The notes under the pieces were generated by a model. It was not told the origin of the DNA, made no database searches, and saw only the letters and a list, made by a program, of their open reading frames with translations. A stretch of 62,939 bases of DNA, filler included, from Stramenopiles sp. TOSAG23-6 (Eukaryota), in the NCBI GenBank assembly GCA_900128565.1. It is 9 parts of 9 records of this genome, joined end to end, with 100 filler letters (N's around TTAATTAATTAA, not from the genome) between each part and the next. Parts side by side here need not be neighbours in the genome. Positions count along the whole stretch, not along the records: positions 54,168 to 61,757 come from LT636543.1; 8 more parts are not named here. The stretch is one strand, 5' to 3'. The position numbers and the translations under genes are program-made. Each line of letters opens with the position of its first letter. The first letter of the stretch is position 1. Shown here in pieces: positions 23,451 through 62,939 of this stretch.

Positions 23451-25715
23451 ATAACCAATTCAACAAATGGTATTGAAAGCAAAACTAAAATCATTGATAC
23501 AGTACCAAACTCTTTACCATCAAACCCAAAAAACCCTAACCCTACTACTACAGACACTTCAAAAATATGTTTAGTAGCAACTAGGGGTGGAATTATTTTT
23601 GATCATAAAAAAAAAGGAGAACAAGATCGTTCTGGAGTCTCTGGTTTACCTAAAATGACATCAAAATCATTTCATTCTGAACATTCATTTAATACAAAAT
23701 CAAGTACAAAATCAAGTACAAAAAATGATAAAAATGATAAAAATGATAAAAATTCAGTTTCATATGAAAATGGTACAGAATTTTGTACTTCTGATGTTAC
23801 AGTGAGTTCAAATATTCAATCATCCTTTGCTCAAATAGTTTCAAAACATATTTTATATTGTGATTCAGTGAATGAAAGAAACAAAATAGTAACATTTTGG
23901 TTAAGTTTGATTTTATCTATTGATGACAACTCAAACAAAAATCATAAAAATCATAAAAATGATACAAATCCTAAAACTCAAATAGAGAGTATTAATGCTT
24001 CGAATACTACAACTACTACTACAATCTATAAAAACAAAAGCAAACACAATTTGAATTCAATGCCTAACCCTAACCCTAATTGTACATCTATTTGTAGACC
24101 TATACGAAATTTATTACAAAACTCAATGCAATTCTTTACTGTTAAAAAAACATTAAATATATTATCAAATACTTTACTGAATATTGCTATACTAAACAAT
24201 ACAAACAGTACCTTGACAAATATATCCAAAACAGTCAAAGATAAAACAAAACTAAAAACACTAAAAACACGAAATCCTGTAAAAATATATTCAAAAAGTA
24301 TATCAACATTTGTCAATGTATTATGTGAAAAAAGCCGAATGTTGACAATACGAAATTATAATCCATTAAATGATACTGGACATCAAACAATAACAATACA
24401 TGTATGTTTTATTTTTTTAAATTTGAAATTGAATTTTTTTTTTTTTTTTTTTTGGTAAAAAAATTTTGTACCTAACAATTTTTTTTTTTATAGAAAATTT
24501 TGAAATATTTTTCCATAATTTATGGAGAAAATCATTATCATTGGTTTTTACCCTATAGACGTACATTGAAAGACGACATCACTGCTAACCCTAACCCTAA
24601 TGGTACTTGTATCCCGTCAAAAGAGGATTTAAAATGTGATACAATGAAAGATAAATTATGTAGGTTTTTTTTTTTCAAATTTTACATTTCATGGATTTTT
24701 TTTTTCGTAGATAATTTTGTACCTAACAAAAAAAAAAATTTTTACTAAAAAAAAAAAAATATTTTTCTTTCATTACATGTACAAATACTGCGTATAATTT
24801 TCTTATTTTACTATCTGAAACACAAATTGAAAAAGATGTCCGTTTATTACTTGGTCGTTGTTGTTTGAATAACCCTAACCCTAATCGAAGTACAACCAAA
24901 AAAACAAAAAATATCAAAAATATTCAAAATATCAAAAATATTCAAAATACTACAAATATTCAAAATACTACAAATAGTACAAATAGTACAAATACAAATT
25001 TGGATTTTCCGTCTGAGATTCAAATTGATGAAATTTCAATAAATGATTTAAATTTTGGTTCTGAACGATATAATTGGGATGTCTCGAAATTTTGTGTTCA
25101 TGAATGGCTGCAATTTGTTCTCACTCTTCCCGAAAATGTATGTTGACTTTTTTTTTTTGTTTTTTTTTTCATACGAAATTTTGTACCTAACAAAAAAAAT
25201 GTTTCACTGAAAAAAAAAAAATTTTATAATTTTTTTTTCATACGAAATTTTGTACCTAACAAACATGTACAACAAAACATTGTAAATATTTTTGTACACT
25301 ATATGAGCCTATTTTATTATTATTCTGGCAATTATTATTTATTCTCTATTTTGAACGATATGAAAATTATTTTTTTGGTCACTTATTTTTTACGGAAGAA
25401 ATGCGACATAAAATGAAAAATCGATTGGATTATTTAGCTGAATATTTTTCAATGTATAAGTATAATAATGTACCTACAAATTCTCAAAATTCGCAAAGCC
25501 CTAACCCTAGTACTGATAACAAAAATTTTGAAAAAAATTCTGAAAAATTTTTTGAAAATTCGTTAGGTACAGAATTACCTACGAAAAAAAATAAATTTGA
25601 AATTGAAAAAAAAAATGCGCAATTTCATGGAATATATAGTGCCATGTCATTATGGATTAGTCAATCAAATGTAACTGAATTTTTAGGACAAAATAAAAAT
25701 GATCCTATAGTGTGA
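23451..25715 (+). CDS. EPG5: EPG5-like autophagy tether, more C-terminal fragment (introns 24402-24523, 24660-24778, 25138-25304); mirror copy on - at 28492-30756
   Basis: Spliced VHEWLQFVLTLPEN-EPILLLFWQLLFILYF…FFGHLFF…MKNRLDYLAEYF…YSAMSLWI resembles, from memory, the EPG5 W..QAL.TP.DHPLLPLIWQKFFLLYL region. Confidence 0.55.
24660..24778 (+). other. Introner-family intron, GT-AT
   Basis: TTAT|GTAGGTTT…TTTTGTACCTAAC…CATTACAT|GT ACA; restores an open frame KLC-TNTAYNFLILL. Confidence 0.7.
25138..25304 (+). other. Introner-family intron, GT-AT, with duplicated branch module
   Basis: AAT|GTATGT…CACTATAT|GAG; two copies of CATACGAAATTTTGTACCTAAC; joins LPEN-EPILLLFWQ. Confidence 0.78.
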
Positions 25716-25813: not shown

Positions 25814-27216
25814 TTTTGAAATTCAAATTGACAAATTGACTTAAATTGATATGAAATATAAAAACATACAAATTGAAAAGGAAGTGAACACAACGATAAT
25901 CTTAATTGACGAACCATTGTATCACCACCAGTGTGTTTTGCATCAGTAATTGTATTGATTGAAATCATTAATAATCTATGTATCAAATTTCGTATATTTA
26001 ATTTCATATTTGAATTAGGGTTAGGGTTTTGACATGTTGATAATTGTTGTGCAATTTCATTTGTCATCCAAACTAACGCATTTGATAAGTATAGAATTGT
26101 CTTTGGTAGTAATGAAAGTCTTTTTATGGCTGTTGAGATACTTGTCATAAGCACTTCAATTGTGCTAAGAAATTCAATAGAATTATTTTTACTAAATGTA
26201 TTTTTAGGAAAATATTTTTGAAAAAAAATTTACAATTTTGTTAGGTACGAAATTTCGTATGAAAAAAAAATATTTTTGAAAAAAAAAATTTTAATTTTGT
26301 TAGGTACGAAATTTCGTATGAAAAAAAAACAAATAAAAAAAAAAAACATACATTTGTCAATTTGAGCCAATACAAAAGATTTCATATCAAGTTGTATAAG
26401 AATTGCAATAATATCTACATCATTAATTATAAATGGAGATACAACTGGCATAGGTGTAATAAATATCCAATCTTTTTCACCATCTGAAAAATTTTCATCA
26501 TCTACAGATAATTTTTTTTGAGTTGCATTTTTGTCTCTTCTAGGGTTAGGGGTTTTATCTTGTCTAGGGTTAGGGGTTTTATCTTGTCTAGGGTTAGGGT
26601 TGTGTAATTTTGAATTGACAATTTTTGGAGTAAGTATATAATGAATTGCAGCAATAAATTCAACATATGAATCATTTTGATTTGGATAATATGATTGTTT
26701 TGAAAGAATATTTAGTAATACACAACCCCAAGGTAAATCTTTCATTGTACAATTTGAATTATTTGAATCACATTTTGAATTATTTACATTACATTTTGAT
26801 TTCGTTTCGTCATCTAGGGTTAGGGTTTTTGTTTTGTCTAGAATTTTTGTTTTTGAGCCAAAACCAAAAGAAAAAAAACATTCTGAACCAAAACCACGAC
26901 AATTTAATAATTCAACAAGAAAAAAATCAAACCAATTCAATTGTTGAGTTACAAATTTACTTTTGTTCTTACTCAAAAATGACGGAAAAAATAAATTGTG
27001 AAAAAATATTTTGAATTTTTTTTTGTTAGGTACAAAATTTCGTACGAAATATTTCAAAAAAAAATTTCAAAAAAAAAAAAAAAAAAAAATAAAAAAAAAA
27101 AAATTTTTTTTTTTTTATTTTTTTTTTTTTTTTTTTTTGAAATTTTTTTTTGAAATATTTCGTACGAAATTTTGTACCTAACAAAAAAAAATTCAAAATA
27201 TTTTTTCACAATTTAT

Positions 27217-28337
27217 TTTTTCCGTCATTTTTGAGTAAGAACAAAAGTAAATTTGTAACTCAACAATTGAATTGGTTTGATTTTTTTCTTGTTGAATTAT
27301 TAAATTGTCGTGGTTTTGGTTCAGAATGTTTTTTTTCTTTTGGTTTTGGCTCAAAAACAAAAATTCTAGACAAAACAAAAACCCTAACCCTAGATGACGA
27401 AACGAAATCAAAATGTAATGTAAATAATTCAAAATGTGATTCAAATAATTCAAATTGTACAATGAAAGATTTACCTTGGGGTTGTGTATTACTAAATATT
27501 CTTTCAAAACAATCATATTATCCAAATCAAAATGATTCATATGTTGAATTTATTGCTGCAATTCATTATATACTTACTCCAAAAATTGTCAATTCAAAAT
27601 TACACAACCCTAACCCTAGACAAGATAAAACCCCTAACCCTAGACAAGATAAAACCCCTAACCCTAGAAGAGACAAAAATGCAACTCAAAAAAAATTATC
27701 TGTAGATGATGAAAATTTTTCAGATGGTGAAAAAGATTGGATATTTATTACACCTATGCCAGTTGTATCTCCATTTATAATTAATGATGTAGATATTATT
27801 GCAATTCTTATACAACTTGATATGAAATCTTTTGTATTGGCTCAAATTGACAAATGTATGTTTTTTTTTTTTATTTGTTTTTTTTTCATACGAAATTTCG
27901 TACCTAACAAAATTAAAATTTTTTTTTTCAAAAATATTTTTTTTTCATACGAAATTTCGTACCTAACAAAATTGTAAATTTTTTTTCAAAAATATTTTCC
28001 TAAAAATACATTTAGTAAAAATAATTCTATTGAATTTCTTAGCACAATTGAAGTGCTTATGACAAGTATCTCAACAGCCATAAAAAGACTTTCATTACTA
28101 CCAAAGACAATTCTATACTTATCAAATGCGTTAGTTTGGATGACAAATGAAATTGCACAACAATTATCAACATGTCAAAACCCTAACCCTAATTCAAATA
28201 TGAAATTAAATATACGAAATTTGATACATAGATTATTAATGATTTCAATCAATACAATTACTGATGCAAAACACACTGGTGGTGATACAATGGTTCGTCA
28301 ATTAAGATTATCGTTGTGTTCACTTCCTTTTCAATTT
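27217..28337 (+). CDS. EPG5: EPG5-like, more N-terminal fragment (intron 27856-28011); mirror copy on - at 25870-26990
   Basis: VDDENFSDGEKDWIF…INDVDIIAILIQL resembles, from memory, EPG5 VDEGGEEDED..SWILLNEDDLVTILAQF. Confidence 0.5.
27856..28011 (+). other. Introner-family intron, GT-AT, with duplicated branch module
   Basis: AAAT|GTATGTTT…AAAATACAT|TT AGT; two copies of CATACGAAATTTCGTACCTAAC; no AG inside. Confidence 0.78.
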
Positions 28338-28426: not shown

Positions 28427-31079
28427 AAAAAAAAAAATTTTTAAAAATTTTAAAATTTCAAAAAAAAAAAAAAAAAAAAAAAAAATATGTTTCACACTAT
28501 AGGATCATTTTTATTTTGTCCTAAAAATTCAGTTACATTTGATTGACTAATCCATAATGACATGGCACTATATATTCCATGAAATTGCGCATTTTTTTTT
28601 TCAATTTCAAATTTATTTTTTTTCGTAGGTAATTCTGTACCTAACGAATTTTCAAAAAATTTTTCAGAATTTTTTTCAAAATTTTTGTTATCAGTACTAG
28701 GGTTAGGGCTTTGCGAATTTTGAGAATTTGTAGGTACATTATTATACTTATACATTGAAAAATATTCAGCTAAATAATCCAATCGATTTTTCATTTTATG
28801 TCGCATTTCTTCCGTAAAAAATAAGTGACCAAAAAAATAATTTTCATATCGTTCAAAATAGAGAATAAATAATAATTGCCAGAATAATAATAAAATAGGC
28901 TCATATAGTGTACAAAAATATTTACAATGTTTTGTTGTACATGTTTGTTAGGTACAAAATTTCGTATGAAAAAAAAATTATAAAATTTTTTTTTTTTCAG
29001 TGAAACATTTTTTTTGTTAGGTACAAAATTTCGTATGAAAAAAAAAACAAAAAAAAAAAGTCAACATACATTTTCGGGAAGAGTGAGAACAAATTGCAGC
29101 CATTCATGAACACAAAATTTCGAGACATCCCAATTATATCGTTCAGAACCAAAATTTAAATCATTTATTGAAATTTCATCAATTTGAATCTCAGACGGAA
29201 AATCCAAATTTGTATTTGTACTATTTGTACTATTTGTAGTATTTTGAATATTTGTAGTATTTTGAATATTTTTGATATTTTGAATATTTTTGATATTTTT
29301 TGTTTTTTTGGTTGTACTTCGATTAGGGTTAGGGTTATTCAAACAACAACGACCAAGTAATAAACGGACATCTTTTTCAATTTGTGTTTCAGATAGTAAA
29401 ATAAGAAAATTATACGCAGTATTTGTACATGTAATGAAAGAAAAATATTTTTTTTTTTTTAGTAAAAATTTTTTTTTTTGTTAGGTACAAAATTATCTAC
29501 GAAAAAAAAAATCCATGAAATGTAAAATTTGAAAAAAAAAAACCTACATAATTTATCTTTCATTGTATCACATTTTAAATCCTCTTTTGACGGGATACAA
29601 GTACCATTAGGGTTAGGGTTAGCAGTGATGTCGTCTTTCAATGTACGTCTATAGGGTAAAAACCAATGATAATGATTTTCTCCATAAATTATGGAAAAAT
29701 ATTTCAAAATTTTCTATAAAAAAAAAAATTGTTAGGTACAAAATTTTTTTACCAAAAAAAAAAAAAAAAAAAATTCAATTTCAAATTTAAAAAAATAAAA
29801 CATACATGTATTGTTATTGTTTGATGTCCAGTATCATTTAATGGATTATAATTTCGTATTGTCAACATTCGGCTTTTTTCACATAATACATTGACAAATG
29901 TTGATATACTTTTTGAATATATTTTTACAGGATTTCGTGTTTTTAGTGTTTTTAGTTTTGTTTTATCTTTGACTGTTTTGGATATATTTGTCAAGGTACT
30001 GTTTGTATTGTTTAGTATAGCAATATTCAGTAAAGTATTTGATAATATATTTAATGTTTTTTTAACAGTAAAGAATTGCATTGAGTTTTGTAATAAATTT
30101 CGTATAGGTCTACAAATAGATGTACAATTAGGGTTAGGGTTAGGCATTGAATTCAAATTGTGTTTGCTTTTGTTTTTATAGATTGTAGTAGTAGTTGTAG
30201 TATTCGAAGCATTAATACTCTCTATTTGAGTTTTAGGATTTGTATCATTTTTATGATTTTTATGATTTTTGTTTGAGTTGTCATCAATAGATAAAATCAA
30301 ACTTAACCAAAATGTTACTATTTTGTTTCTTTCATTCACTGAATCACAATATAAAATATGTTTTGAAACTATTTGAGCAAAGGATGATTGAATATTTGAA
30401 CTCACTGTAACATCAGAAGTACAAAATTCTGTACCATTTTCATATGAAACTGAATTTTTATCATTTTTATCATTTTTATCATTTTTTGTACTTGATTTTG
30501 TACTTGATTTTGTATTAAATGAATGTTCAGAATGAAATGATTTTGATGTCATTTTAGGTAAACCAGAGACTCCAGAACGATCTTGTTCTCCTTTTTTTTT
30601 ATGATCAAAAATAATTCCACCCCTAGTTGCTACTAAACATATTTTTGAAGTGTCTGTAGTAGTAGGGTTAGGGTTTTTTGGGTTTGATGGTAAAGAGTTT
30701 GGTACTGTATCAATGATTTTAGTTTTGCTTTCAATACCATTTGTTGAATTGGTTATCTGTATTGTATATATATATATATATTATTATTATTATTATTATT
30801 ATTAGTCTTTTAAAAAAATAGTTAGGAAAATATTTTAAATTTTTTTTTTTTTTTTTTTTTTTTGGGAAAAAATTTTTTTACAAAAAAAAAGAAAAAAAAA
30901 TTTAAAAAATTTTGGAAAAACAAANNNNNNNNNNNNNNNNNNNNNNNNNNNNNNNNNNNNNNNNNNNNTTAATTAATTAANNNNNNNNNNNNNNNNNNNN
31001 NNNNNNNNNNNNNNNNNNNNNNNNATTTTGTACCTAACAAATTTTAGTTTTTTTTTTGAAATATTTTTTCACAATACAT

Positions 31080-32587
31080 TAAGTAAATCTTTCGGTTTAC
31101 AGAGACTTTTGAATATCCAAGATAAAAAGCAGATAACGGATGTTACTAACAATGTGGATACTAGAAAAAAATATTCTTTCTTTTTTGATTCTGATGGTGA
31201 AAGCTCAATTTTTAATACATCAAAAGAAATATCAAGAAAAAAAAATGATTCTCCAAAAAAAGGATGGTTAAATTTTTCTACTATTTTTGCTTCGTCTTCT
31301 ACAAAACATCATAAATCTTGTACAAGTAAAGTTAGATTACCAGTAAAAATGGAAATATGTTCAGGTGCTGGTGAATGGGCCGTTGCACAAGCTTTAGCTA
31401 GTCGTTCCTCCGATGGAGTATCATCTGTAGAAAATAATAATAATATACATGTTGCTAATTGGGTTACAGTAGAACTACGCCGTGATCGCTTATATCATAC
31501 AATGTTACGTGCACTATTTTCTGGTGCAGATAATATGTGTTTCATGTCTGGCGATGCATCAAAAATTCTTCCTTCAAGTATTGCAACTTCATCGATATCA
31601 AACATTTACGTGAATCATCCTGAGCCACCGGAGCGTACATCTGATGGTGCTTTTGATTCCCAAGGAAAGCATTTATTGACTGCATCATTTTTTAAGGATA
31701 TTGCAAGAGTTCTTACCCCTGGTGGTACTATTACTATTGTCACAGATAATTTAGGGTATGCCAAACTTTTAGCTGGTATTGTAGCTGGTGCGAAATATGA
31801 CGGAAATTATACTGACTGTGAAGCATTTGAAGAATTAAAAAATAATAATGACAGTATGAATGATGGCGAGATAGATAATAATTTACCACCGGTATTTAAT
31901 CGACCTGCTCCAGGAAGAATTCGTACATGGGAAACTACATCCCTTACACCTAATCCTAATCCTAATCCTAACCCTAACCCTAATGATTCTTTTCGTAGAC
32001 ATTCAAAAGAAAATACACAAAAAGAGAAACGCAAAAATGTAGATATTAAAAAGAGGTTTTTTGCGTCTGTTCCTGTTAGAAAAGTTGCAAGTGATGGCAG
32101 ACAAATTAAAATGAGCATTTATGGTGTTGATATTTGTGTTGGTATACCTGGCCGACGTGTTATCGGAGGGCATGTCACTCATGTACGTTTTCATCATGAA
32201 TTTCAAATTTGTTTTTTTTTCATACGAAAATGTGTACCTAACACATTATACATTTTTATTTTTTTCACAATACATGCATCATCATATTTTGATCGATTGT
32301 GGAGGAAAGGTAAAAATGTAGAACGATTTTCTTTAGTCCTACGTACAAAAGATATTTCTGGTATTTTTGAAAGTTCTACTTTTATTTCAAAAGATAATTT
32401 TAAATTAGTAGATTCATTTTCTTCTTCCTCTTCTTCGTCTGCTCCTATGTCACGTAAACGCATTATTAAAGCCGTTCGTGTTTCACCAGTGCGACCTGAC
32501 AAGCGAAGTACCACAGAAATTTTAAAACACCAGAAAGCAAAAAAACAAAGAACGAAATTGTCGAATGTTAAAAAAGTTATTTTTTAG
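31080..32587 (+). CDS. TrmB-like (tRNA m7G46) methyltransferase-domain protein, 5'-partial, intron 32183-32275
   Basis: MEICSGAGEW, VTVELR, IYVNHPEPP, HLLT..FF..IARVL.PGG.ITIVTDN..YA, SSYFDRLW. Confidence 0.75.
32183..32275 (+). other. Introner-family intron, GT-AT, 93 nt (stop-free, in frame)
   Basis: CAT|GTACGTTTTC…CATACGAAAATGTGTACCTAAC…CACAATACAT|GCA; no AG inside. Confidence 0.8.
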
Positions 32588-32633
32588 ATTTTTTAGATAA
32601 AGTATCATTTAAATGGACTTTTAAATGTTTTTT

Positions 32634-33940
32634 TTATTGTTTTGCTTTTTTACGTTGCTCAAAAAAAGGATCTGGAAATACTTCTGGAAAAAATTGACCC
32701 GCTTTTCCAAGCTTTCCTGCTAATGGAGGTTTTTGGAGTGAAAAAATATTTTAAGGAAAAAAAATGTCAGGTACAGAGTTAGGTACGAAAAGAAAATTTT
32801 TAAAATTTTTAAAATTGATGATTATGGTTGTTAACATACTTTGGATCGAGGCACTGAGTTCTACCGTCAATATAGTTGACACTGAAAGCTCGTCTAGGGC
32901 AAGCTGTAACATTACTCCCACTTTTATGCACCGTAAAATTGTGGACGAGGAAGGTATCACCAGGTTTGCCTGTATGAAAAAAAAAGTTGTATTTTTATCT
33001 TTTTGTTAGGTAAAAAGCCTTTGGATTAGGGTTAGGATTTATTTAAAAAAATATATTTTAGATGCAATTTTAGCAACGTACATTGAAGAGATACAGTATT
33101 CTCAGGTCTACATATCTTCTTTACTAGTTCTGAAGATAATGTATTTTAGAAAAATATTTCAAAAAAAAACGTTAGGTACAAAATTTAGTATGAAAAAAAA
33201 ATCGAAATTAAAAAAAAATAAAATCATACATGTATGTCCTCGAGCCGATAAAAGACCAAATTTATGAGAACCGCGAATTACTTTCATACAACCTGAATTT
33301 TCTGTGACGTCATCGAGGGCTGTCCAACAAAATATTTTTGGGTCTCGGTCCAAGGCCCACCAGTCACCCCCATCTTGATGATAAGGCATGTATTGTCAAA
33401 ACATGTTTGGAGGATTTGTAGAAAAAAAATATTAGGTACAAAATTGTGTATGAAATGTTTTTTTTTGAAATTGGTGATAAAAATATACAGTGGCATTCCA
33501 CCGCCACACTTTTTAAAATGTGCAGGCTTATTGAATAGCATTGCTCTATACACAGAAATTTTGGTATGTGGCCCATATGCGCGACTACATATATCTCTAA
33601 AAATAGATTTCTTCATAAAAGATGCAAAGAGGTCATCACATTCAAGGCCAGCTCCAGCTTCACCGATTTTGCGATACATTCGTGTGGCACCCTTCCAACC
33701 TACAGTCTGACCAGAAATTTCAACATTTTGCTTTTCATAATCGAGCTCTTCGCCATTTTTGTTGGTGGTAGGGTCTAACTGCATTAATAATTTGTCACCG
33801 TATTGTATTTTTCCCATCATGATATCATCGATACGTTTTATGAGAGCTTCAAGTTCAACTTTTGAAAGTACATTTTCGATTCGAAGGAAACCATCCTCGA
33901 GAAACTGCTCCCAATCTGCATCAGAAATACACGTAGACAT
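32634..33940 (-). CDS. PhyH-family dioxygenase, five exons
   Basis: Spliced product …GGGMPLPYHQDGG…WTALDD..ENSGCMKVIRGSH…LSARGHTLSS…CKPGDTFLVHNFTVHKSG…RRAFSVNY…. Confidence 0.88.
32731..32839 (-). other. Introner-family intron, probable GT-AA
   Basis: CCAAA|GTATGT…TTCGTACCTAAC…CACTCCAAAA|A CCT gives LDPKPPLAG; no AG inside. Confidence 0.6.
32970..33081 (-). other. Introner-family intron, canonical GT-AG variant containing CCTAACCCTAA
   Basis: CAAT|GTACGT…TTTTTACCTAAC…CATACAG|GC AAA gives LQCKPGD. Confidence 0.82.
33139..33229 (-). other. Introner-family intron, GT-AT
   Basis: ACAT|GTATGA…TTTTGTACCTAAC…AAAATACAT|TA TCT gives RGHTLSSE. Confidence 0.85.
33388..33488 (-). other. Introner-family intron, GT-AT
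   Basis: CCA CT|GTATAT…GACAATACAT|G CCT gives MPLPYHQD; no AG inside. Confidence 0.85.
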
Positions 33941-34467
33941 TCTTTTCTATGACAATATAATGATCACTGAGTTATGAATAAATAGCTTTTGTAGAAGAGG
34001 AAAAGAAAACAGAGAGGAAACGAGGCAAAGACTCAAAGTGGGCTTCCCTTGGAGAGAGGTATTATATTATTTTATTCGTATCTTCGTATATTTATTATAT
34101 TATATTGCGGCCATCGCGCGATGATTGATGTCAAAATTTCTCCGTTGATGTCCGTTCTTTCTATTTTTTCGCTTTCCGTTTCATCGGAGTTTTTTTTGAC
34201 GTACTAGTAGTAGAAACACGTAAGTATGTGTGGCTATTTTATTCTATAATATAGACAACAAATACAGACTGTAGCTAGTAGTGTTAATTGCTCTTTACTA
34301 CGTACTATACAACTACCTCCATACAGTACGTCGTAGTATCCTACAGCCAACTTTGAATCTCAATTCTAATGCAGTGCCACTTGCAGTAGATTGGCTAGGG
34401 TTAGGTTCAACAATTTCAATATTTTCATGGTACGAATACTTTGATTATTATTAGTAAATAGAAAAAA

Positions 34468-36628
34468 ATGTCTGCCCAAGTGCACCCTTTAGATGCATCA
34501 TCTAAGGTTAATTTGGAAGATCAATTTTCAAAGACTTCTGCTGTACCAACTAGTCACCAACCATCGAATGGTTTCAAAAGCAAGGGAACTAGGGTTAGGG
34601 TTCTTGACAAAAGGAGAGTAACTATTGAAGAAAGACGTCGGTCTCTACGTACTGCAGTAAAAAGTGTGGAGAGTACTCTGCAAGATTTGGATAGAATTAG
34701 GCGAAATGTCATTTCCCCCAATAGTAGTGTAATGCATTATTGGGATTTTTTCATGTTTATACTTCTTGCATTCACTGCAAGTATGTTTTATTTTTTTTTC
34801 AATTTCGAAATTATTTTTCATACGAAATTTTGTATCTAACATTTTTTTTAGATTTTTTTTTGAAATATTTTTCCAAAATACAACGATTACGCCGTATGAA
34901 GTAGCATTTTTAGAAAGACAAACAGGAGCCCTGTTTTTTATTAATGTAGTAGTAAATCTATCCTTTTTCATAGATTTGATTCTACAATTCTTCTTGGTAT
35001 ATTATGATGAAAAACGCGGAATGTGGGAGTATGACCATAAACTAATTGCACAAAATTATATCCGAGGTTGGTTTATAGTTGATTTTGTATCTGTGCTACC
35101 GTTTGATATTCTTGGCAAAATAACAAACAATGAAGAAATCGGAGGTGCAAAATTTCTTCGTATTGTTCGTTTGATGCGCTTATTTAAACTAGTAAAAATT
35201 GTAAAAGCGTCAAACATTTTACTAAGATTTCAAGCTAGTATCAGTTTGTCCTTTGCACTACTAGAATTAATAAAGTTTCTAATTGGTGTTATCGCCATAT
35301 CCCATTGGTGTGCCTGCTTATGGTACTTATCAGCATTTATAGAGGTCGGCCGTGAAAATTGGATCACAAATTATGGAATTGAAGACTCCACTTTAGTTGA
35401 TAAATACGTTGTTTCATTATATTGGTCTGTAATGACAATAACTACAATTGGATATGGAGATGTTCTCCCAATGAATATTTCGGAAAGAATCTGTGCTACT
35501 TTTACAATGATGATTGGAGGAGCAGTGTATGCATATGCCATCGGAGCGGTTTGTGGGATTATTAGTAGCATGGATCGTGATATTGCTGATTTTCACCAGG
35601 CAATGGATCAGTTAAATGCGTATTTAGAAGAAGTGAAAGCTCCACCAGCAATGTGTATGAGAATGAGAAGTTATTTTACTGAAAGTCGAAGTTTACATCA
35701 ACACAAATATAATCTTGGTATCATAAGACAAATGTCTGCTGGTCTTCGACGAGAATTTGCAGGGTATTGTCATGGTCATTGGATTCGTTCAGTTCCCTTT
35801 TTTAGTGGTGGATCATATGAAAAAGACTTTATTTCAGCAATAGCATTAAAGCTGTATAATAGATCATATCCAGCATTTGAGGAGTTGATCCGTGAAGGTG
35901 AACCAACAGAAAAAATGTATCTTATTCGAAGAGGTTTGGTTGGCAAAACGGGTAGAGTGTATGGTACAGGCAGATATGTCGGCGAAGATATGATATTATT
36001 TAATTCCAAGAGAAACTATAGAGTGACTTGCTTAACCTTTGTTGATGTTATGGTTTTATCCAGTGAAGATTTAAGAGAAATATTAACAAATCCGCTCTTT
36101 TCAGAGCAATCGCATATAATAAGAACAGCTTCTATTTGGATGCGACTTCGAGTTGCGTTTATTCAGATGGCAAGAGATATTTCTGTATTTAAGATGCTAA
36201 CTGGGCATACTCCTATTTTCAAAACAAAGGATGATGGAATCCGATTTTTATTATCACTCAATAATCCAGATTTGAAAAAAACAAATAGACCTGTGTCTAA
36301 TTATGAAAACACAAAAGATATAGAAAAAGTAGAAAACATAAAAAAAGAACTTGANAAAAATTCACCACATATTTTGAAAGATATTGATGATACCTTGGAA
36401 GCTTGGACGAAAAAACAAAATTGTGTTGTAAAAAAAGCTGTACGAGAGACATATAACACAAGTACTAAAATACTTCAAGATAAATTAGAGAAAATGATCA
36501 AATCTAAGTTAAGAGACATGAGTGTTCATGTTGTAAATGAAGCAAAGAATAGAATAACCTTTATTGCAGCATTATCATCATTTTTTATTATCCTGGTAGC
36601 ATCTGTGTTATCAAATTCAATTAAATAA
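34468..36628 (+). CDS. Cyclic-nucleotide-binding voltage-gated channel (KCNH/HCN/CNG-like), intron 34781-34883
   Basis: S4 LRIVRLMRLFKLVK, pore TITTIGYGD, cNMP-binding domain with MYLIRRG and GEDMIL. Confidence 0.92.
34781..34883 (+). other. Introner-family intron, GT-AA
   Basis: GCAA|GTATGTTT…CAAAATACAA|CG ATT gives LLAFTATITPYE (S1 motif). The only internal AG is out of frame. Confidence 0.8.
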
Positions 36629-36863
36629 AATTGTGACAAGATTTTATCATATAATTATTCTTAGAATTTTTGATTGAGAAAAACTGAAAAAAATCAAAAA
36701 AAGTCAGGCGGTGAACAAAACTGCTCGGTCAAGCCACTTCAGATGATTTGATTAGTCTCTCTCGACCACGCACTATCATCTATTATCGATACTGGACCTC
36801 GCGACAGTCCTTTTGCCCCACTTGACATTATCTTAAGTCTTGAATTCAGCGACATTTAGATTA

Positions 36864-37592
36864 ATGCAGCGTTCTTTATCTTTAGCACGGCGTGCGATCG
36901 TTGCATCCACGTCACCACTAAAGCAAACATTCAACTTAGCTGCAGTACGTTGTAGCAGTGCCGGTGCTCCAGGATGGTCTTGGCATGAAGATTTGACAAA
37001 TATCGTCAAGGCTATTGCGCTTTGGGGGCCTTCTTTAACAATGCGAAAGTTTCTACATATGAAGGATATTCGTTTTGGTAATAAGGTAGGAGAGGATTCC
37101 ATGGGAAATAGCTACTATGAAAATACAAATTATCAATATGGAAGACACCGATGGGTTGAATATGCTGGTCTTCCATGGTCTTCAGAAGTGGAACAGACGA
37201 CAGTTGACGCTGATTGGTATGGATGGCTACACTACACAACTGATCAGAAAGGCAACGATTATCGATTACAAGAAGGTGAAAAGATAAATCAAGGCTCTGA
37301 CGTACCATACAATCATGGTGTTGGTGGAGTTATTGAACCTTTTAGTCGAAATAACACATCTGTGAAACGTCGGGCTTATAACGATGGTGTGAGTCCTGCC
37401 GTTGATAGTTATTGGAAACAGCCAAGTCATCCTTCATTTAAGGACAAGAATAAACGAACAGGTCCTGTCTTTCACGAAGCTCGTGTTGAAGAGTGGACTC
37501 CTCCAAACGAGGAACCAAAAAAGATCGATCCAAAGAATCAACCTGCTGGGTTCACTGACGGTAAGTTTACACGTGATCTAAACGATTATTAA
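36864..37592 (+). CDS. NDUFA12: NADH:ubiquinone oxidoreductase subunit NDUFA12 (B17.2)
   Basis: G..VGEDSMGNSYYE…GRHRWVEY…WYGWLH…EEWTP; mitochondrial-type presequence. Confidence 0.9.
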   Translation: MQRSLSLARRAIVASTSPLKQTFNLAAVRCSSAGAPGWSWHEDLTNIVKAIALWGPSLTMRKFLHMKDIRFGNKVGEDSMGNSYYENTNYQYGRHRWVEYAGLPWSSEVEQTTVDADWYGWLHYTTDQKGNDYRLQEGEKINQGSDVPYNHGVGGVIEPFSRNNTSVKRRAYNDGVSPAVDSYWKQPSHPSFKDKNKRTGPVFHEARVEEWTPPNEEPKKIDPKNQPAGFTDGKFTRDLNDY

Positions 37593-37802
37593 CTGGCGAA
37601 GACTATTCTTGTCAATATGTGTGATATGCATGATTCAGAAACAATCTTCACCACTCAGTTTATCTTTGTTAAATAAATTATTATACAGAAAATGTCTAAA
37701 AATGTTTATAATATATACTAAAAGTAAATTACAAATTCACTTAAGGGAAACAAACATTACTGTTTTTTCAAATAAATCACAAATTCACTTAGGGAAACAA
37801 AC

Positions 37803-38618
<816 letters not shown>

Positions 38619-38971
38619 TCAAAAAAAAATCGTTAGGTACGAAATTTCGTATGAAANNNNNNNNNNNNNNNNNNNNNNNNNNNNNNNNNNNNNNNNNNNN
38701 TTAATTAATTAANNNNNNNNNNNNNNNNNNNNNNNNNNNNNNNNNNNNNNNNNNNNAAAAAAACAATTTATCAGAACCCCAAAGTTTGAGCGACAGAGCA
38801 GAGCGAGTTCAGTTTGAACAAAATGGAAAAAATGGTGGTCATCCATCGCGTCCATCAAACCAAAGTCAAAAGTCAGAGTGAGTCAGAGACTCAGAGTATG
38901 AATTATTTAGTAAGTGTGCAATAATAGTAATTGTGTGCCTCCAACATTAAACGCTCGTGAAAGCTTAGAAT

Positions 38972-42714: not shown

Positions 42715-44475
42715 TTGATTGGCCCGGTCAGCCATGCGAAAAAACATTCAGCAAAGCAAACGTCGGAACTTGAAGTAAAGTGTGAGAGTATGTTACCAAG
42801 AAAGGGGGAAACTATTACATTACTTGTCGATTTAGACTCAGATGTCCCTGGCACAGAATTAAAGAAGGGTACAAAAGCAACTGTACGTTTGTTACCGTGT
42901 GAAAACTCTGGTTTATATGAAATCGTAGTAGGTAATAAGTTGTATGATGTTGATTTGTCTGAAATACAAACGTCAAATCCGAGTTGTGAGTTTACTACTC
43001 CCATAAAAATGCCTTCTGTAATATCTCAAAATCGCGACCAGGCTAAATATTTATGGGAAAGAGGTACTCAAAAATGGCGCTTGGCTCTGGATAACTCTTG
43101 CCAACCTAGTAATGGTGTAAGTGTAGCTAAAGAACTTATTTTACAATCCATTTATGATTTCCTTGACTCCAATCGCTTTGATAGTCAAAAATACATTGAT
43201 AATTCTGCAAGTTGCAGTTCAAAGATTTCTCTAGCTGAGAGATGCCTTTTCACTGGTATTTGTCTGGTTGATCTTGGCTCAAAGCATGTCAAAATGGGTT
43301 GTTCCTTGATGCGTCAAAGTTTAGCTCTGAATAGTCTAGATATTCGAGCATGGCGTGAGTTATGCTGTGTTTTAGAAGAAGAAGGAGATATGAAAAGTGC
43401 AAGAAATCTAGTGTCTGAAGCTGTCGCGAAAGGCTTCGGTCCATGGTATCATCCCAGTGGATATCAACGGCCAGGTTATTTGGTGTCAAATCTGCGTGCC
43501 TTTCCATTTTGGCTTGCAGACAGTAAAAAAACAATCTTGGGCACGAAATTTTGTATGAAAAAAAATAGTAAAATTGAAATTCATAATGATCAAACAGAAT
43601 TCCCGTGGATAAAGAAATTGGCAGAAAATACGCATATCATAAAGTCTGAATTAGAATCTGTTGTAGGTAGTAATATTGGTTGTACAAAAAAATCTTCTAA
43701 AAAGTGGAATGCAGTAGGAGGTAATCATAGACTATGTACATTTTATTTTTTTTTCAATTTTGATTTTTTTTTTTCGTACGAAATTTTGTACCTAACGAAT
43801 TTCATTTTTTTTTTGAAATATTTTCCCAAAATATATCTGGTCGCGATGATTCTTCCGTATTAACTCAAGGAAACTGGGATGAAATAATAGTATTTAATGG
43901 GGATCCAAATAATACGACAATAATGCCAAAAACTGCAGCTTTGTTGGAGAAAATATGCCCTGATGCTGTTGATCTTGCATTGAGAGGTGGTGGTGAAATA
44001 ATTTTCTCAAGGTTAGCTCCTAAAACACGAATATCGCCTCACTGTGCGACTACTAATTTTAGATTGACTGCACATTTAGGCATATCAATTCCTTCAGAAT
44101 GTGTCAAAGGACCACCTGGAAAGCTGAGTCCAAGCAATGTTTGCTCCATTCGTGTTGGTACACAATGGGAAACCTGGGAGGAAGGGCGAGTTTTAGTTTT
44201 TGATGATTCTTTTGAACACGAGGTAATCAACGATACGGATCATACACGAATAATCTTACTTTTGAGATTTTGGCATCCGGATATTTCAATTCACTCTACA
44301 ATAACAAAAACAAATAGATATAAAGAATACCAAGTAAAAAAAAACAAATAGATATAAAGAATACCAAATAGAAAATAATTTTAATAATGCAACAAAACAA
44401 GCTGCTATCAAAGGAGCTTGTGCCTATCGTGAGGCTGCATCGCAGTTTAAATTAATGCCTCCAGTGTATTCCTGA
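42715..44475 (+). CDS. Aspartyl/asparaginyl beta-hydroxylase family protein with TPR-like N-terminal region (introns 43523-43597, 43736-43836; 3' end uncertain)
   Basis: FSRLAPKTRISPHC..TNFRLTAHLG, WEEGRVLVFDDSFEHEV, LLLRFWHPD. Confidence 0.85.
43523..43597 (+). mobile_element. Antisense-oriented copy of the introner element, probably spliced as a 75-nt GT-AG intron
   Basis: Reverse complement reads TCATTATGAATTTCAATTTT…TTTCATACAAAATTTCGTGCCCAAG. Removal gives FPFWLADKFPWIKKL. Confidence 0.65.
43736..43836 (+). other. Introner-family intron, GT-AT
   Basis: CTAT|GTACAT…TTTCGTACGAAATTTTGTACCTAAC…AAAATATAT|CT GGT gives NHRLSGRDD; no AG inside. Confidence 0.85.
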
Positions 44476-53229: not shown

Positions 53230-54067
53230 ATGGATGCAGTAGTTAAATTTTGGAAAATGTGTGCAGAACTAGGCGATGTAGAAGCACAATTCAATCTTGG
53301 TATATGTTATTCTAACGGTGATGGTGGCACTCAATGTTATAAAACAGCAGTTACATGGTTGAAAAAGTCTGGGGAACAAGGCTATGCAGAAGCACAATAC
53401 AGTCTTGCTATGTGCTATTTGAAAGGTAATGGTGTCACTCAATGTTATAAAACAGCAGTTAAATGGTATAAAAAGTCTGCAAATCAAGGCCATGCAGATG
53501 CACAGTGTGCTCTTGCTACGTGCTATTTGAGAGGTGATGGTGTCACTCAATGTTATAAAACAGGAGTTGATTGGTTGAAAAAGTCTGCAAATCAAGACCA
53601 TGTAGAAGCAAAGTATATTCTTGGTAATTGTTATTTTAAAGGTGATGGTGTCACTCAATGTGATAAAACTGCAGTTAAATGGTGGAAAAAGTCTGCAAAT
53701 CAAGGCCATGTAAAAGCACAGTATCATCTTGGTATATGTTATCATAAAGGTGATGGTGTCACTCAATGTTATAAAACAGCAGTTGAATGGTTGAAAAAGG
53801 CTGCAAATCAAGGATGTAAGAACGCACAAGTCGCTCTTGCTATGAGTTATTGTGATGGTATTGGTGTCACTAAATGTTTGAAAACCGCAGCAAAATGGAA
53901 CGGAAAAGCAAAAAAGCAGATGAAAGACACAGATGATGATTTTTTAAGAGAACTCATAATCAAACAGAGTAAATCAAAATGTTTTACTTGTGGTTTAGAG
54001 GGTAAAAATAAAAAAATGCTTCTTTGTAGTCAGTGTAAGGCTGTGTCATATTGTTCAAAGAAGTGTC
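53230..54067 (+). CDS. Mirror copy of the Sel1-MYND gene (fold-back arm)
   Basis: Reverse complement of 46468-47305. Confidence 0.6.
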
Positions 54068-54224: not shown

Positions 54225-54732
54225 ACACCTCATTCTTGTACCATCCAACCGTGGAAACGTGATGCATTTGTTGTGAATACACTATGGGGTATACCAAAAA
54301 AACAGATTAATCTTGGTATTGGATTTTTCTCGTATAACCACACAGGAGTCTCTGGTGAGTTACCGTGGGATTTTCATGGTGAACCGACGTGGCATGTATG
54401 TTTTAATTTTTTTTTTTTTACGGTAAAAAAAAAATCGAATTTATTTTTTTCGTACGAAATTTCGTACCTAACAAATTTTTTTTTATAGAAAAATTTTGAA
54501 ATATTTTTTCATAATACATGGTATTTCGAAACTTTGTCCAAATATTGACAAAAATAAATGTGTTTGTAATGGAGTTTGGTTTACATCTAAATCTATGTGT
54601 ACAGAGATTGGTCGGTTTGTAAAAGAAGAAGGATTTCGTGGTGTGTTTCCTTGGGCAGCAAATTATGATAGTCCAGATTCAAAAGACTCATTAGCTTATT
54701 ATGTTGGTATGGGACTCGGTCTTGTTAATTAG
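54225..54732 (+). CDS. GH18 (chitinase-like) C-terminal exons, intron 54396-54519
   Basis: WGIPKKQINLGIGFF and FVKEEGFRGVFPWAANYD match the GH18 beta7/beta8 pattern. Confidence 0.65.
54396..54519 (+). other. Introner-family intron, GT-AT
   Basis: CAT|GTATGTTTT…TTTCGTACGAAATTTCGTACCTAAC…ATAATACAT|GGT; the internal AG is out of frame. Confidence 0.82.
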
Positions 54733-54912: not shown

Positions 54913-56921
54913 ATGTTTTTATGCTCACGGCGTTTTCTATTTGGTATTCACAACTTGTCAAAAGCAAATGGATATCGTTTGTTTTCAACGACTCCTATTG
55001 CATCACCTACTATTGTAAAGACAAAAGGTCGTGTGTTGCTTCTTGAACTTGATTATCGGGCGACAAATGTTGCGCCGGGAACACTTTTACGTCTCCCAAA
55101 TGGTGGAAACGCGTGTACTCTTTTTGAAATCAATGGAATGCACATTGCGCTTGTAATGGATAGTACCATACAATTACCAGAGATTGGACAAAATGTATCC
55201 ATATCAGAAAAAGTGCTTGGAGTCGATGCCAAGCGTGTCTTGAGCACAGACACACCAGTGAATATACAGAATTATTTTCAATCTATTCCTTCCAAAAAGG
55301 ATATAAAGGACAACACAGATACTAGTAGTACTACTTGTACTATTACTACTACTGATATGTACAACTTTCCTGTATTTCAAGAGCATCCAGAAGGCTCAAA
55401 TCGACAAGTTATTTCAAAACAATTTCATACTGGAGTCATTGCTGTCGATGCTCTCACACCCATTGGTCGTGGACAAAGTATGTTGATTTTAGGTCAAGAT
55501 GGTGATAGGGGTCAATTTGATATTGCTTTAGATGCAATCAGTGTTCAAAAAGAGAATGATGTACAATGTATTTGGGCTTTACTTGGTGAGAACACTTCTG
55601 ATGAAGTCACCATTGAAAATAACTCTGATTATAATGATACCAATTCTTTAGAGCATTTACAACATCGTTTATCAAAACGTGATTGTGTTTCTACAAATAC
55701 ATTTATATCAACTACAAACACATTGCCTAGTATAGTTGATTGTGATATCAATGATAGTCATCAAGATGATATTATACACGACAAACACGAAATACGACGT
55801 ATTGAAAAAGATGCTGATCGATTTGTTGGAGCTGCTGCAGCGTGTGCCGTATGTGAAAGTTTGAGAGATAATGGTAAATCTAGTGTACTTGTACTTGATG
55901 AACTCACGCCTCTACGTCGTCTTTGGTCAGCTGCTGGCGATATGGTGAATGAACATTTAAAAGATGTAGGAAAAAGACGAGCGAGTGGTGCAGAAGAATT
56001 AGCAAATCTTAGAGATTATTATTCCCGATTGATACAACGCGCTGCCTGTCTACGTCCGGATCTTGGAGGGGGGAGTATGACAATACTTGCACTGTGTACA
56101 GAAACAACAAAAGATGTTGTTGAGAAGAAACAAAGAATACATAAAAATAGCTCTATACTTGACAATGAACAAAATCAACAAAATCAACAAAATCAACAAA
56201 ATCAACAAAAACAACAAAATCAACAAAATGAGTTGATTAATATAACAAACAAAGTGAATGATTTGCCACTTGAAATGAATGATTTACTAGAGATGGGTGT
56301 TTCATCAAAAGATATACAACGTATTGAACTTCTTTGGTGTCGTGGAGCAAAAATTAATAGAAATGTTTTACAAATTTTATCCATCCCTTACAATGAAACT
56401 GTATACCCTAACCCTAACCCTAATTTGACAGAGACATTTGAAACACCTACAAAATATTCAAAATATTCAAAACATTCAAAAATATCCATGCAACATTGTG
56501 AAGAATTAAAGTCACTAGCAGATGGTCATATAAATTTAACTACAAAAATATGGGACACTGGATATCGACCAGCATTTGATGTCTCACATTCATTATCACG
56601 ATTAGGAATTACTTTTGGTACTTTTTTTTTTTCAATTTCGAATTTATTTTTTTTTGGTACGAAATTTTGTACCTAACAAATTTTTAATTTTTTTTTGAAA
56701 TATTTTTAACACGATGGGAGGTCAAGAATTAGCTGATGTTCGTCCACCTGCTTTACGTAGTGTGGCACAACCTATTCGAATGCAAATGACCGCAGCTCTA
56801 GAAGCTACAAACTCAGCGACATCTGCGGCATCGATTCTTTCACGCGAAAACGTCACTCCACAAGAACATACTGCTGCAATAGCAAATGTATTTTTTCATT
56901 ACAATTACAATTACAATTACA

Positions 56922-61858: not shown

Positions 61859-62939
61859 AGTGATTTAGATCATAGTGATGATATTTTTTCAAATACAAAT
61901 AGTGATTTAGATAATAATGATGATATTATTTCAAATACAAATAGTGATTTAGATCATAATGATGATATTATTTCAAATAAGAGTTGTTATGAAGAGGAAA
62001 TTGCAGATCAAACTTGTCACAAAAAACATAAAAAACAATCTGAAGTCAATGAAATTGTTCCTGAACAAATGTCAACGTCACCAAAACCTCCCCACACACC
62101 ATGTATGTTTTATTTTTTTTCAAATTCTAATTTTTTGTTTCGTACGAAATTTGATACCTAACAAAAAACTTTTTTTTTTTTGAAATTCTAATTTTTTTTC
62201 GTACGAAATTTTGTACCTAACAAAAAACTTTTTTTTTTTTTAAATATTTTTCCGAAATACATGCCCTGCTTATGCTGAAATGCAAATACCTGCTCTCCAG
62301 TATGCAATGGCAAATTATGGAATGAGAAAAGCTTCAAAGAAAGTAATGGTACAAAAACTAACTGAGTTTTGGCACTTTTTGAGAAAGGATAAACTCATTC
62401 AAAAGACTAAAGAAAAAAAAAAAAGAAAGAAAAAGAAGAAGACTAATTTGATTTGTCGACAGAATTGTAATGTAGTTGCTCTTCCTGTACCTGATGAAAA
62501 TGGTCATATAGATGCGGTACTTGCACCTGTACGTTTTCAGTATGAATTTCAAATTTTTTTTTCGTACGAAATTTCGTACCTAACAAATTTCGAATTTAAT
62601 TTTTTTTACGATACATGTTATCCAAGGCTGTAAAGCTGGAAAAACAACGTGTACGAATCAAAGTGATCAAAAATGTAGTGAATGCAATAATAACAGCACA
62701 CGAGAGAGCAATGGAAAAATCTGTAAATGTAAAGACGGGTTTTACGGAGACTGCACCCAAACATGCACCAACAGGGCAAATTCAACTTGTACTAAATGTA
62801 GTTCAATTAATGTATGTACTGCTTTAACTTGCACTAATGGTTTTCTTAATGCAGATAATGATGCCAGTAATGGTTGTGAAAAAGCATGCACCAACAGGGC
62901 AAATTCAACGTGTACTTCATGCACTTCAAATGACACATG
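61859..62939 (+). CDS. SLX4-type SAP-motif protein fragment continuing into Cys-rich repeats (introns 62103-62262, 62529-62616); possibly two genes joined
   Basis: TPCPAYAEMQIPALQYAMANYGMRKASKKVMVQKLTEFW resembles the SLX4 SAP motif; then CKCKDGFYG and CTNRANSTC repeats. Confidence 0.55.
62103..62262 (+). other. Introner-family intron, GT-AT, with duplicated branch module
   Basis: CCAT|GTATGTTT…CGAAATACAT|GC CCT; two TTTCGTACGAAATTT..TACCTAAC units; no AG inside. Confidence 0.82.
62529..62616 (+). other. Introner-family intron, GT-AT
   Basis: CCT|GTACGTTTT…TTTCGTACGAAATTTCGTACCTAAC…ACGATACAT|GTT; opens the Cys-rich frame to the window end. Confidence 0.75.

Follow-up and report, generated by a model that had tools for sequence, protein, structure and literature searches.

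Introners may co-opt an acceptor from a duplication, as exemplified by Chrysochromulina in part of a 2022 study (PMC9860276). The introns analyzed here, from the genome of Stramenopiles sp. TOSAG23-6, resemble the introners covered in that part of the study in that they comprise a repeated short family with a locus-specific duplication at the boundaries, and their removal would exactly restore the mRNA. Unlike those introners, which co-opt AG, they end with AT (also GT, TT or AA), and they differ further in having a 2-bp duplication, a 4-bp inverted repeat and a strict branch word of their own. The expected acceptors named in the accessible part of another article (PMC12130899) are AG and AC only. 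As the commonest acceptor, 3' AT is reported for Fritillaria borealis and F. pellucida (34% and 44%, respectively; Soo et al. 2026, PMC13326754), where, to the extent of the excerpt considered, U2-type splicing and YAY before the donor and at the acceptor are further points of similarity to our family. Fritillaria, however, is a tunicate with mostly AG-starting donors and duplicated U2AF subunits, whereas here the donors are GT and no U2AF35-type finger is found among 17 matches; moreover, both Fritillaria versions of U1 share one 5' end that, in the same excerpt, is not strongly complementary to the donor, whereas the U1 described below matches the donor (PMC13326754).

Co-evolved U1 arms are described for Mastigamoeba balamuthi (ACGUAC) and Entamoeba (ACAAAC) (Roy and Bowser, 10.1101/2022.06.08.495308, in part). 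The ACGUAC arm, which pairs with a donor that has a pyrimidine at +4, is common to Mastigamoeba and the present genome; beyond Mastigamoeba, for which the relevant portion of the preprint reports no extended pairing, changes at arm positions 2 and 9 extend the pairing here to the +7 U and to an exonic -1 U supplied by the duplication, and the host is a stramenopile with AG-less introns. The introner elements of Amoebophrya likewise form a non-canonical repeated class, with direct repeats that span the intron boundaries (Farhat et al. 2021, PMC7789003); in the sections of that paper that concern us, 8-20-nt inverted repeats join the ends and the splice motifs vary widely. The present family, by contrast, has a strict donor and a strict branch word, and its two ends are predicted to pair in just 31 of the 126 copies. 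A literature search, with most subscription journals and supplements (where tables of introner families might be found) outside its scope, returned no article that describes GT-AT introners or an altered U1 in a stramenopile.

The sequence under study, hereinafter the window, is a stretch of 62,939 nucleotides composed of 9 parts of 9 records of this genome (GCA_900128565.1) joined by filler; the features of the focal locus and of three further full copies are listed in Table 1. A eukaryotic 18S is present in the genome, and a public gene model with 100% identity bears a label that points to MAST-3, a marine lineage being in question. For the focal GH18 chitinase-like gene, all 702 open-frame joins of the flanking exons were scored against 17 homologues, of which 11 carry PF00704. 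The top-scoring join removes the GT...AT intron listed in the table and leaves a junction without a gap in the closest homologues (15 alignments shown), and the sole open join of the GT-AG type has a much lower score. Five cut registers yield the identical mRNA, as both ends are flanked by CATG.

Table 1. Features of the focal intron and its host gene, and other full copies, by position in the window.
Feature	Positions	Strand	Basis
3' half of a second intron copy in the same gene, truncated by the contig start	54168..54224	+	sequence
Upstream exon of the GH18 chitinase-like gene, ends CAT	54225..54395	+	open frame; gap-free junction against homologues
AT at the exon end, presumed left copy of the 2-bp target-site duplication	54394..54395	+	covariation at -2/-1; pairs with U1 A9-U10
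124-nt GT...AT intron, one family copy	54396..54519	+	best join against 17 homologues
Donor GTATGTTTT, of which bases 1-4 form the left arm of the 4-bp terminal inverted repeat	54396..54404	+	family logo, U1 duplex, end comparison
Palindrome TTTCGTACGAAA	54448..54459	.	sequence; in 43/126 family copies
Palindrome GTACGAAATTTCGTAC	54452..54467	.	can form a 6-bp hairpin, -6.5 kcal/mol; no covariation
Branch-site word GTACCTAAC (CTAAC, 54468-54472)	54464..54472	+	overlaps right palindrome arm
Skipped AG, 17 nt past the branch A; its use shifts the frame	54487..54488	+	
GAAATATTT, "second palindrome", within the 3' block at fixed distance from the acceptor	54498..54506	+	
3' end block: ATAC (right inverted-repeat arm), then AT (acceptor, right duplication copy)	54507..54519	+	
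Downstream exon through the stop codon	54520..54732	+	17 homologues at E <= 0.001
Full copy, GT...AT	32183..32275	+	member of the 126-copy set
Full copy with AA as its last two bases, preceded by an exon that also ends in AA	34781..34883	+	member of the 126-copy set
Full copy, GT...AT	43736..43836	+	member of the 126-copy set

The preliminary description of this DNA centered on overlapping palindromes that abut CTAAC, and these are confirmed at the positions given in Table 1. The branch A would be at 54471, judging by the likeness of the word to the U2 branch consensus. In the window, the 14-mer has 48 strand-hits with at most one mismatch (0.13 expected), and in the 21.1-Mb genome, the 20-mer TACGAAATTTYGTACCTAAC has 4852 exact matches compared to 0 for the reversed control; an Rfam scan of the window produced no match. 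The variant that had been named as the commonest, with T in place of C, indeed prevails, at 16 exact places in the window versus 7 for the C variant. The part of the window between 23283 and 30924 is a perfect inverted duplication throughout, probably an amplification or an assembly artefact, so that the intron copies there are counted twice; with the doubles removed, the counts are 13 versus 5. The fully perfect 16-mer is rare, with 2 places in the window and 7 of the 126 copies of the family set defined below. In some copies (25183-25260, 27900-27967 and 62154-62221 of the window, and L074), the palindrome-branch block is duplicated in tandem, so that a single intron contains two branch words.

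Other observations in the window concern the surrounding genes. A gene for a Sel1-repeat protein that has a MYND finger at its C-terminus lies at 53230-54066 and is truncated by the contig end; at 54913-56607 there is an ATP synthase alpha/beta-like ORF of which only part of the nucleotide-binding domain is matched, and element introns follow it near 56620 and 56970. Telomere-like CCCTAA runs occur within coding regions and a few introns (26540-26600, 31950-31990 and 56400-56420). Elsewhere in the assembly, one contig (L037, G000:C137) has bacterial-type LSU and SSU rRNA matches and is probably mitochondrial or a contaminant.

Reading frames were surveyed over 657 kb that contain 212 TACCTAAC sites, with both ends modelled in 143. 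The frame is open at the modelled ends in 117 of the 143, compared to 46 and 34 for shifted ends and 18 without splicing. Re-anchoring on CTAAC and the two ends in 857 kb yielded 136 copies, of which the 126 with an open frame were kept and 10 were dropped; only 4 window copies pass the strict cut-offs of this set. The 126 copies are related by descent and were chosen by end profiles that include the 3' block, so that the conservation of the ends is inflated. They share an interior consensus in unrelated genes, as expected of introners, i.e., many alike introns at unrelated loci, and their splicing restores motifs that we take to be those of SNF2 helicase and ClpB. A metagenome scan gave 1 locus with the same architecture. 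In 11 of the 126 copies, the start is not GT but AT, GC, GA or GG, and the frame is kept (L047, L068, L069, L074-L076).

Instead of the AG acceptor of U2-type introns, which is found in only 6 of the 126 copies, the family ends with AT in 103, GT in 7, TT in 5 and other dinucleotides in 5. An earlier AG is bypassed in 33 copies; its use would keep the frame in only 7 of these and shift it in 26. In 33 of 95 cases, the first AG past the intron end is in frame, as expected by chance. The claim that the 3' end is chosen without AG is supported by the reading frames and the homologues. Two further parts of the preliminary description hold with restrictions. The second small palindrome exists in the form AAATATTT (87/126), which in 86 of the 87 carriers stops 12-13 nt short of the exon, but the form GAAATATTT(T)C occurs in just 2 of the 126 and is absent from the focal copy; the spacing of about 35-50 nt between branch and acceptor applies to 89 copies, but the full range is 22-58 nt (median 38; 48 nt in the focal copy). 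Given that AAATATTT is located at 12-13 nt from the exon whereas the branch distance spans 22-58 nt, the cut appears to be set relative to the 3' block rather than to the branch or the palindrome.

The genes for U5, U2, U1 and U4 are arranged head to tail within 640 bases (L001:9-645; G000:C1146:1-650), and of the four, only U1 is divergent, in the 5' arm and in loops I and II. It scores 54 bits, below the Rfam cut-off of 69.5, and is the only U1 found in the genome, with two identical records. The U1 arm reads AAACGUACAUGG compared to AUACUUACCUGG in Rfam. The 5' arm AAACGUACAUG contains three changes, all of which pair with the family donor AU/GUAYGUUU: G5 with C or U at donor position +4 (46 and 78 of the 126 copies, respectively), A9 with the exonic U at -1 (109/126) and A2 with the U at +7 (125/126). 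The complementarity spans positions -3 to +8, and 115 of the 126 donors start with GT, in line with U2-type donors. The mean predicted energy of the U1-donor duplex is -10.2 kcal/mol, compared to -2.8 kcal/mol for the Rfam-consensus arm, with the altered arm pairing better in 121 of the 126 copies. A few introns outside the family, AG/GTAAGT...YAG with ordinary branch words, appear to persist (L044, L068 and one identified by eye in L116); these fit the altered U1 less well, so that the assembly may lack a second U1.

The remaining components are mostly ordinary. The U5 loop and the ACAGAGA box of U6 are canonical, as is U2, which reads GUGUAGUAUCUG exactly as in Rfam; because its branch-pairing arm is canonical, the extended complementarity of U2 to GTACCTAAC that had been envisaged does not exist. 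CUAAC fits the usual pairing register of the U2 GUAGUA, and the predicted U2-branch duplexes are weak, at about -1.8 kcal/mol. Changes in the Prp8 acceptor pocket were considered and rejected: the loop region aligned to human Prp8 1334-1700, which we take to be this pocket, is nearly identical. A U2AF65-like gene is present (L120:664-2628, minus strand); both RRMs of its product match the first RRM of the family model, its nearest named relatives are in stramenopiles, and close forms are found in others of this group. In the incomplete assembly, the SF1-HH profile had no match anywhere, controls included, and none of the 17 PF00642 matches, judged by eye, is a zinc finger of the U2AF35 type; one further RRM locus is not U2AF35 either. 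U12 snRNA was likewise not found in the incomplete genome, and the donor GTAYGTTTT is distinct from the U12-type donor, RTATCCTT.

The evidence of a mobile origin comes from the ends of the copies. The dinucleotide that closes the intron co-varies by locus with the one that closes the exon, at offsets -2 and -1 only, and matching non-AT pairs number 15 compared to 1.4 expected (at most 7 in 10,000 shuffles). Pairs of the form X/AT outnumber those of the form AT/X, 22 to 5 (p 0.0015), which indicates that AT is favoured on the intron side. This pattern reads as a 2-bp target-site duplication with AT preferred on the intron side, and such a locus-specific duplication supports a mobile-element origin. 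A 4-bp duplication of CATG was rejected because positions -3 and +1 do not co-vary. The terminal inverted repeat is 4 bp only (GTAY/ATAC; position 5 matches in 2 of the 126 copies), i.e., shorter than the 6 bp or more expected of a MITE or another DNA transposon derivative; a suspected 22-bp degenerate inverted repeat was likewise abandoned because the column matches drop after 4 bases.

The duplication signal at the ends, the interior shared by copies in unrelated genes and the TTTCR/YGAAA words repeated in both orientations would also be compatible with the palindrome being kept as DNA, that is, as a site for transposase binding or target recognition in an element that is still mobile, the overlap with the branch site having enabled its spread as an intron; the palindrome, however, is central in the element rather than subterminal, and we consider this explanation unlikely. 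ISL2EU (PHIS) transposons produce AT duplications of the same 2-bp length (Han et al. 2015, PMC4482050), but the target that the pertinent part of that article gives as preferred is A/AT/T, whereas the flanks here lean to C and G (C-AT-G, with C at -3 in 48 of the 126 copies, not fixed), and no transposase is linked to the ends here. Genes for Harbinger-type transposases do exist in the genome (L147, G000:C2432; L148, G000:C4153), but without the intron ends: the DDE_Tnp_4 loci read, two of the five matches (the three others have identical coordinates and scores), contain no element end words. An autonomous partner with the same ends was found at neither of these 2 loci in a search confined to the single family PF13359. 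L147 also has a second convergent ORF, with four records at identical coordinates.

Still less probable is the explanation proposed at the outset, namely, that the palindrome forms a hairpin in the RNA and thereby exposes the branch A or, in place of AG recognition, determines where the 3' splice site lies. A hairpin is predicted in the focal copy, within a fold of serial stems (z -2.1, with an equally good fold in 7 of 200 shuffles), pairing probabilities average 0.96 in the perfect form and 0.78 in the G-U form (predicted fold energies of -6.5 and -4.4 kcal/mol, respectively), and in 55 of the 126 whole-intron ensembles, the pairing probability exceeds 0.5, so that the hairpin can form. Over the 126 copies, however, there is no covariation that would betray a structural role: 598 of 756 cells are paired compared to 594 by permutation (p 0.18), and all six stem pairs are intact in 55 copies only. 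These counts refer to copies that share ancestry rather than to independent events, but shared ancestry inflates apparent covariation and does not account for its absence. The G-U bias that had been noted is real at one of the six stem pairs, where G-U (67) far exceeds A-C (6), but A-U is about as frequent there as the column counts predict by chance (20 observed versus 21 expected), and at the other five pairs, 136 changes break the pairing and 16 keep it; the broken pairs include A-C in 39 copies and G-G or A-G in 29. Stem integrity has no effect on spacing (p 0.24) or on the use of AG (3/55 versus 3/71), the distance from branch to acceptor varies although the 3' block is fixed, and the stem would bury the GUAC beside the branch site.

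The two arms of the palindrome differ in conservation: GTAC is intact in 111 of the 126 copies in the right arm and in 63 in the left arm. The integrity of the left arm tracks that of the linker (rho 0.33, p 1e-4), and the C/G columns of left arm and linker are 47-71% conserved. The left arm is best read as an inherited relic of the founder element, and the common C-to-T variant as a family allele rather than a selected G-U pair, T being the majority base at this position (98/126). CpG deamination as the source of the C-to-T change is unsupported: the genome-wide CpG observed/expected ratio is 0.88, and the middle CpG mostly changes otherwise. The hairpin itself would be of little importance, and the interest would lie in the surrounding system.

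Five RNA runs contain 6-9% of the words of window positions 31100-38600. The RNA contigs from 4 runs placed on the neighbouring contig are mostly other element copies and, among the joints listed, include none at a modelled intron; contigs of X1 and X3, two runs of one sample, are unspliced where they enter or cross copies. One X2 contig halts 2 bases into an AG-ending copy at 38056, with 41 letters unplaced, which is only a hint. At 31025-38656, in two RNA runs of one sample, the summed depth is thousands-fold over element words and 2-6 over exons; the excess may come from DNA, from pre-mRNA or from stable introns excised at many loci. Exact removal of the elements from the coding sequence fits the frames and the homologues, and splicing is accordingly deduced from the sequence rather than observed in the RNA joints listed. 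It is nevertheless very improbable that the elements are not spliceosomal GT-AT introns at all and are instead removed with AGs close by as acceptors, by minor-type machinery in an AT-AC register or by another route: the lack of a listed joint, the AT on both sides, which lets the AT...AC register yield the same mRNA, and the resemblance of CCTAAC to the U12-type branch word are countered by copies with unequal ends, in which the AT-AC register creates stops (L090, L096) or breaks residues that we take to belong to conserved motifs, by U1 pairing in the GT register, by the failure to find U12 in the incomplete genome and by the frameshifts that most bypassed AGs would cause.

The explanation that we favor, with moderate confidence, is that the motif belongs to a MITE-like introner that the major spliceosome removes, with the cuts defined by the altered U1, the canonical U2 and the 3' block. 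The motif would be the core of a non-autonomous element of about 97 nt, GTAYGTTTT...CAMAATAC, which would have been inserted at thousands of coding positions, presumably by transposition, with duplication of 2 target bases, mostly AT. The altered arm of U1 would pair with exon-AU/GUAYGUUU, the complementarity being evident and the function presumed, and U2 would bind CCUAAC of the right palindrome arm as the branch site. The 3' cut would follow the duplicated dinucleotide and would be set by the 3' block, AAATATTTTT...CAMAATAC-AT, rather than by the first AG or the distance from the branch; the frames and the homologues point to the cut position, and recognition would probably proceed through the terminal block. 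Removal of the element together with one copy of the duplication would restore the original mRNA, and the left palindrome arm would be a legacy of the founder that decays like the adjacent linker.

The exonic U paired by A9 of U1 is supplied by the duplication, which makes it probable that U1 adapted to the invasion; alternatively, the element might have exploited an already shifted U1. More tentatively, and with less confidence than the introner model itself commands, a transposon invasion may have re-programmed the spliceosome, with the U1 arm changed at three positions so as to match both the terminal repeat of the element and its target duplication, and an AG-blind choice of the 3' end via a factor that binds the 3' block; U2AF35 and SF1 might have been lost or replaced, and this U1 might be dedicated to the elements, with another U1 serving the old AG/GTAAGT...AG introns.

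The annotation of this genome is affected by these introns. The ClpB gene (L078:281-959, minus strand) contains several element introns, and at one ClpB junction, the public gene model P0138 carries six intron-derived residues and lacks the first motif of the next exon; a search for a transcript-derived ClpB protein returned this gene model alone. The system would represent a natural experiment on the choice of the 3' end without AG and on splicing machinery that co-evolves with invading introns, and it is testable through thousands of near-identical substrates, a base-for-base match of U1 and an unchanged Prp8 core.
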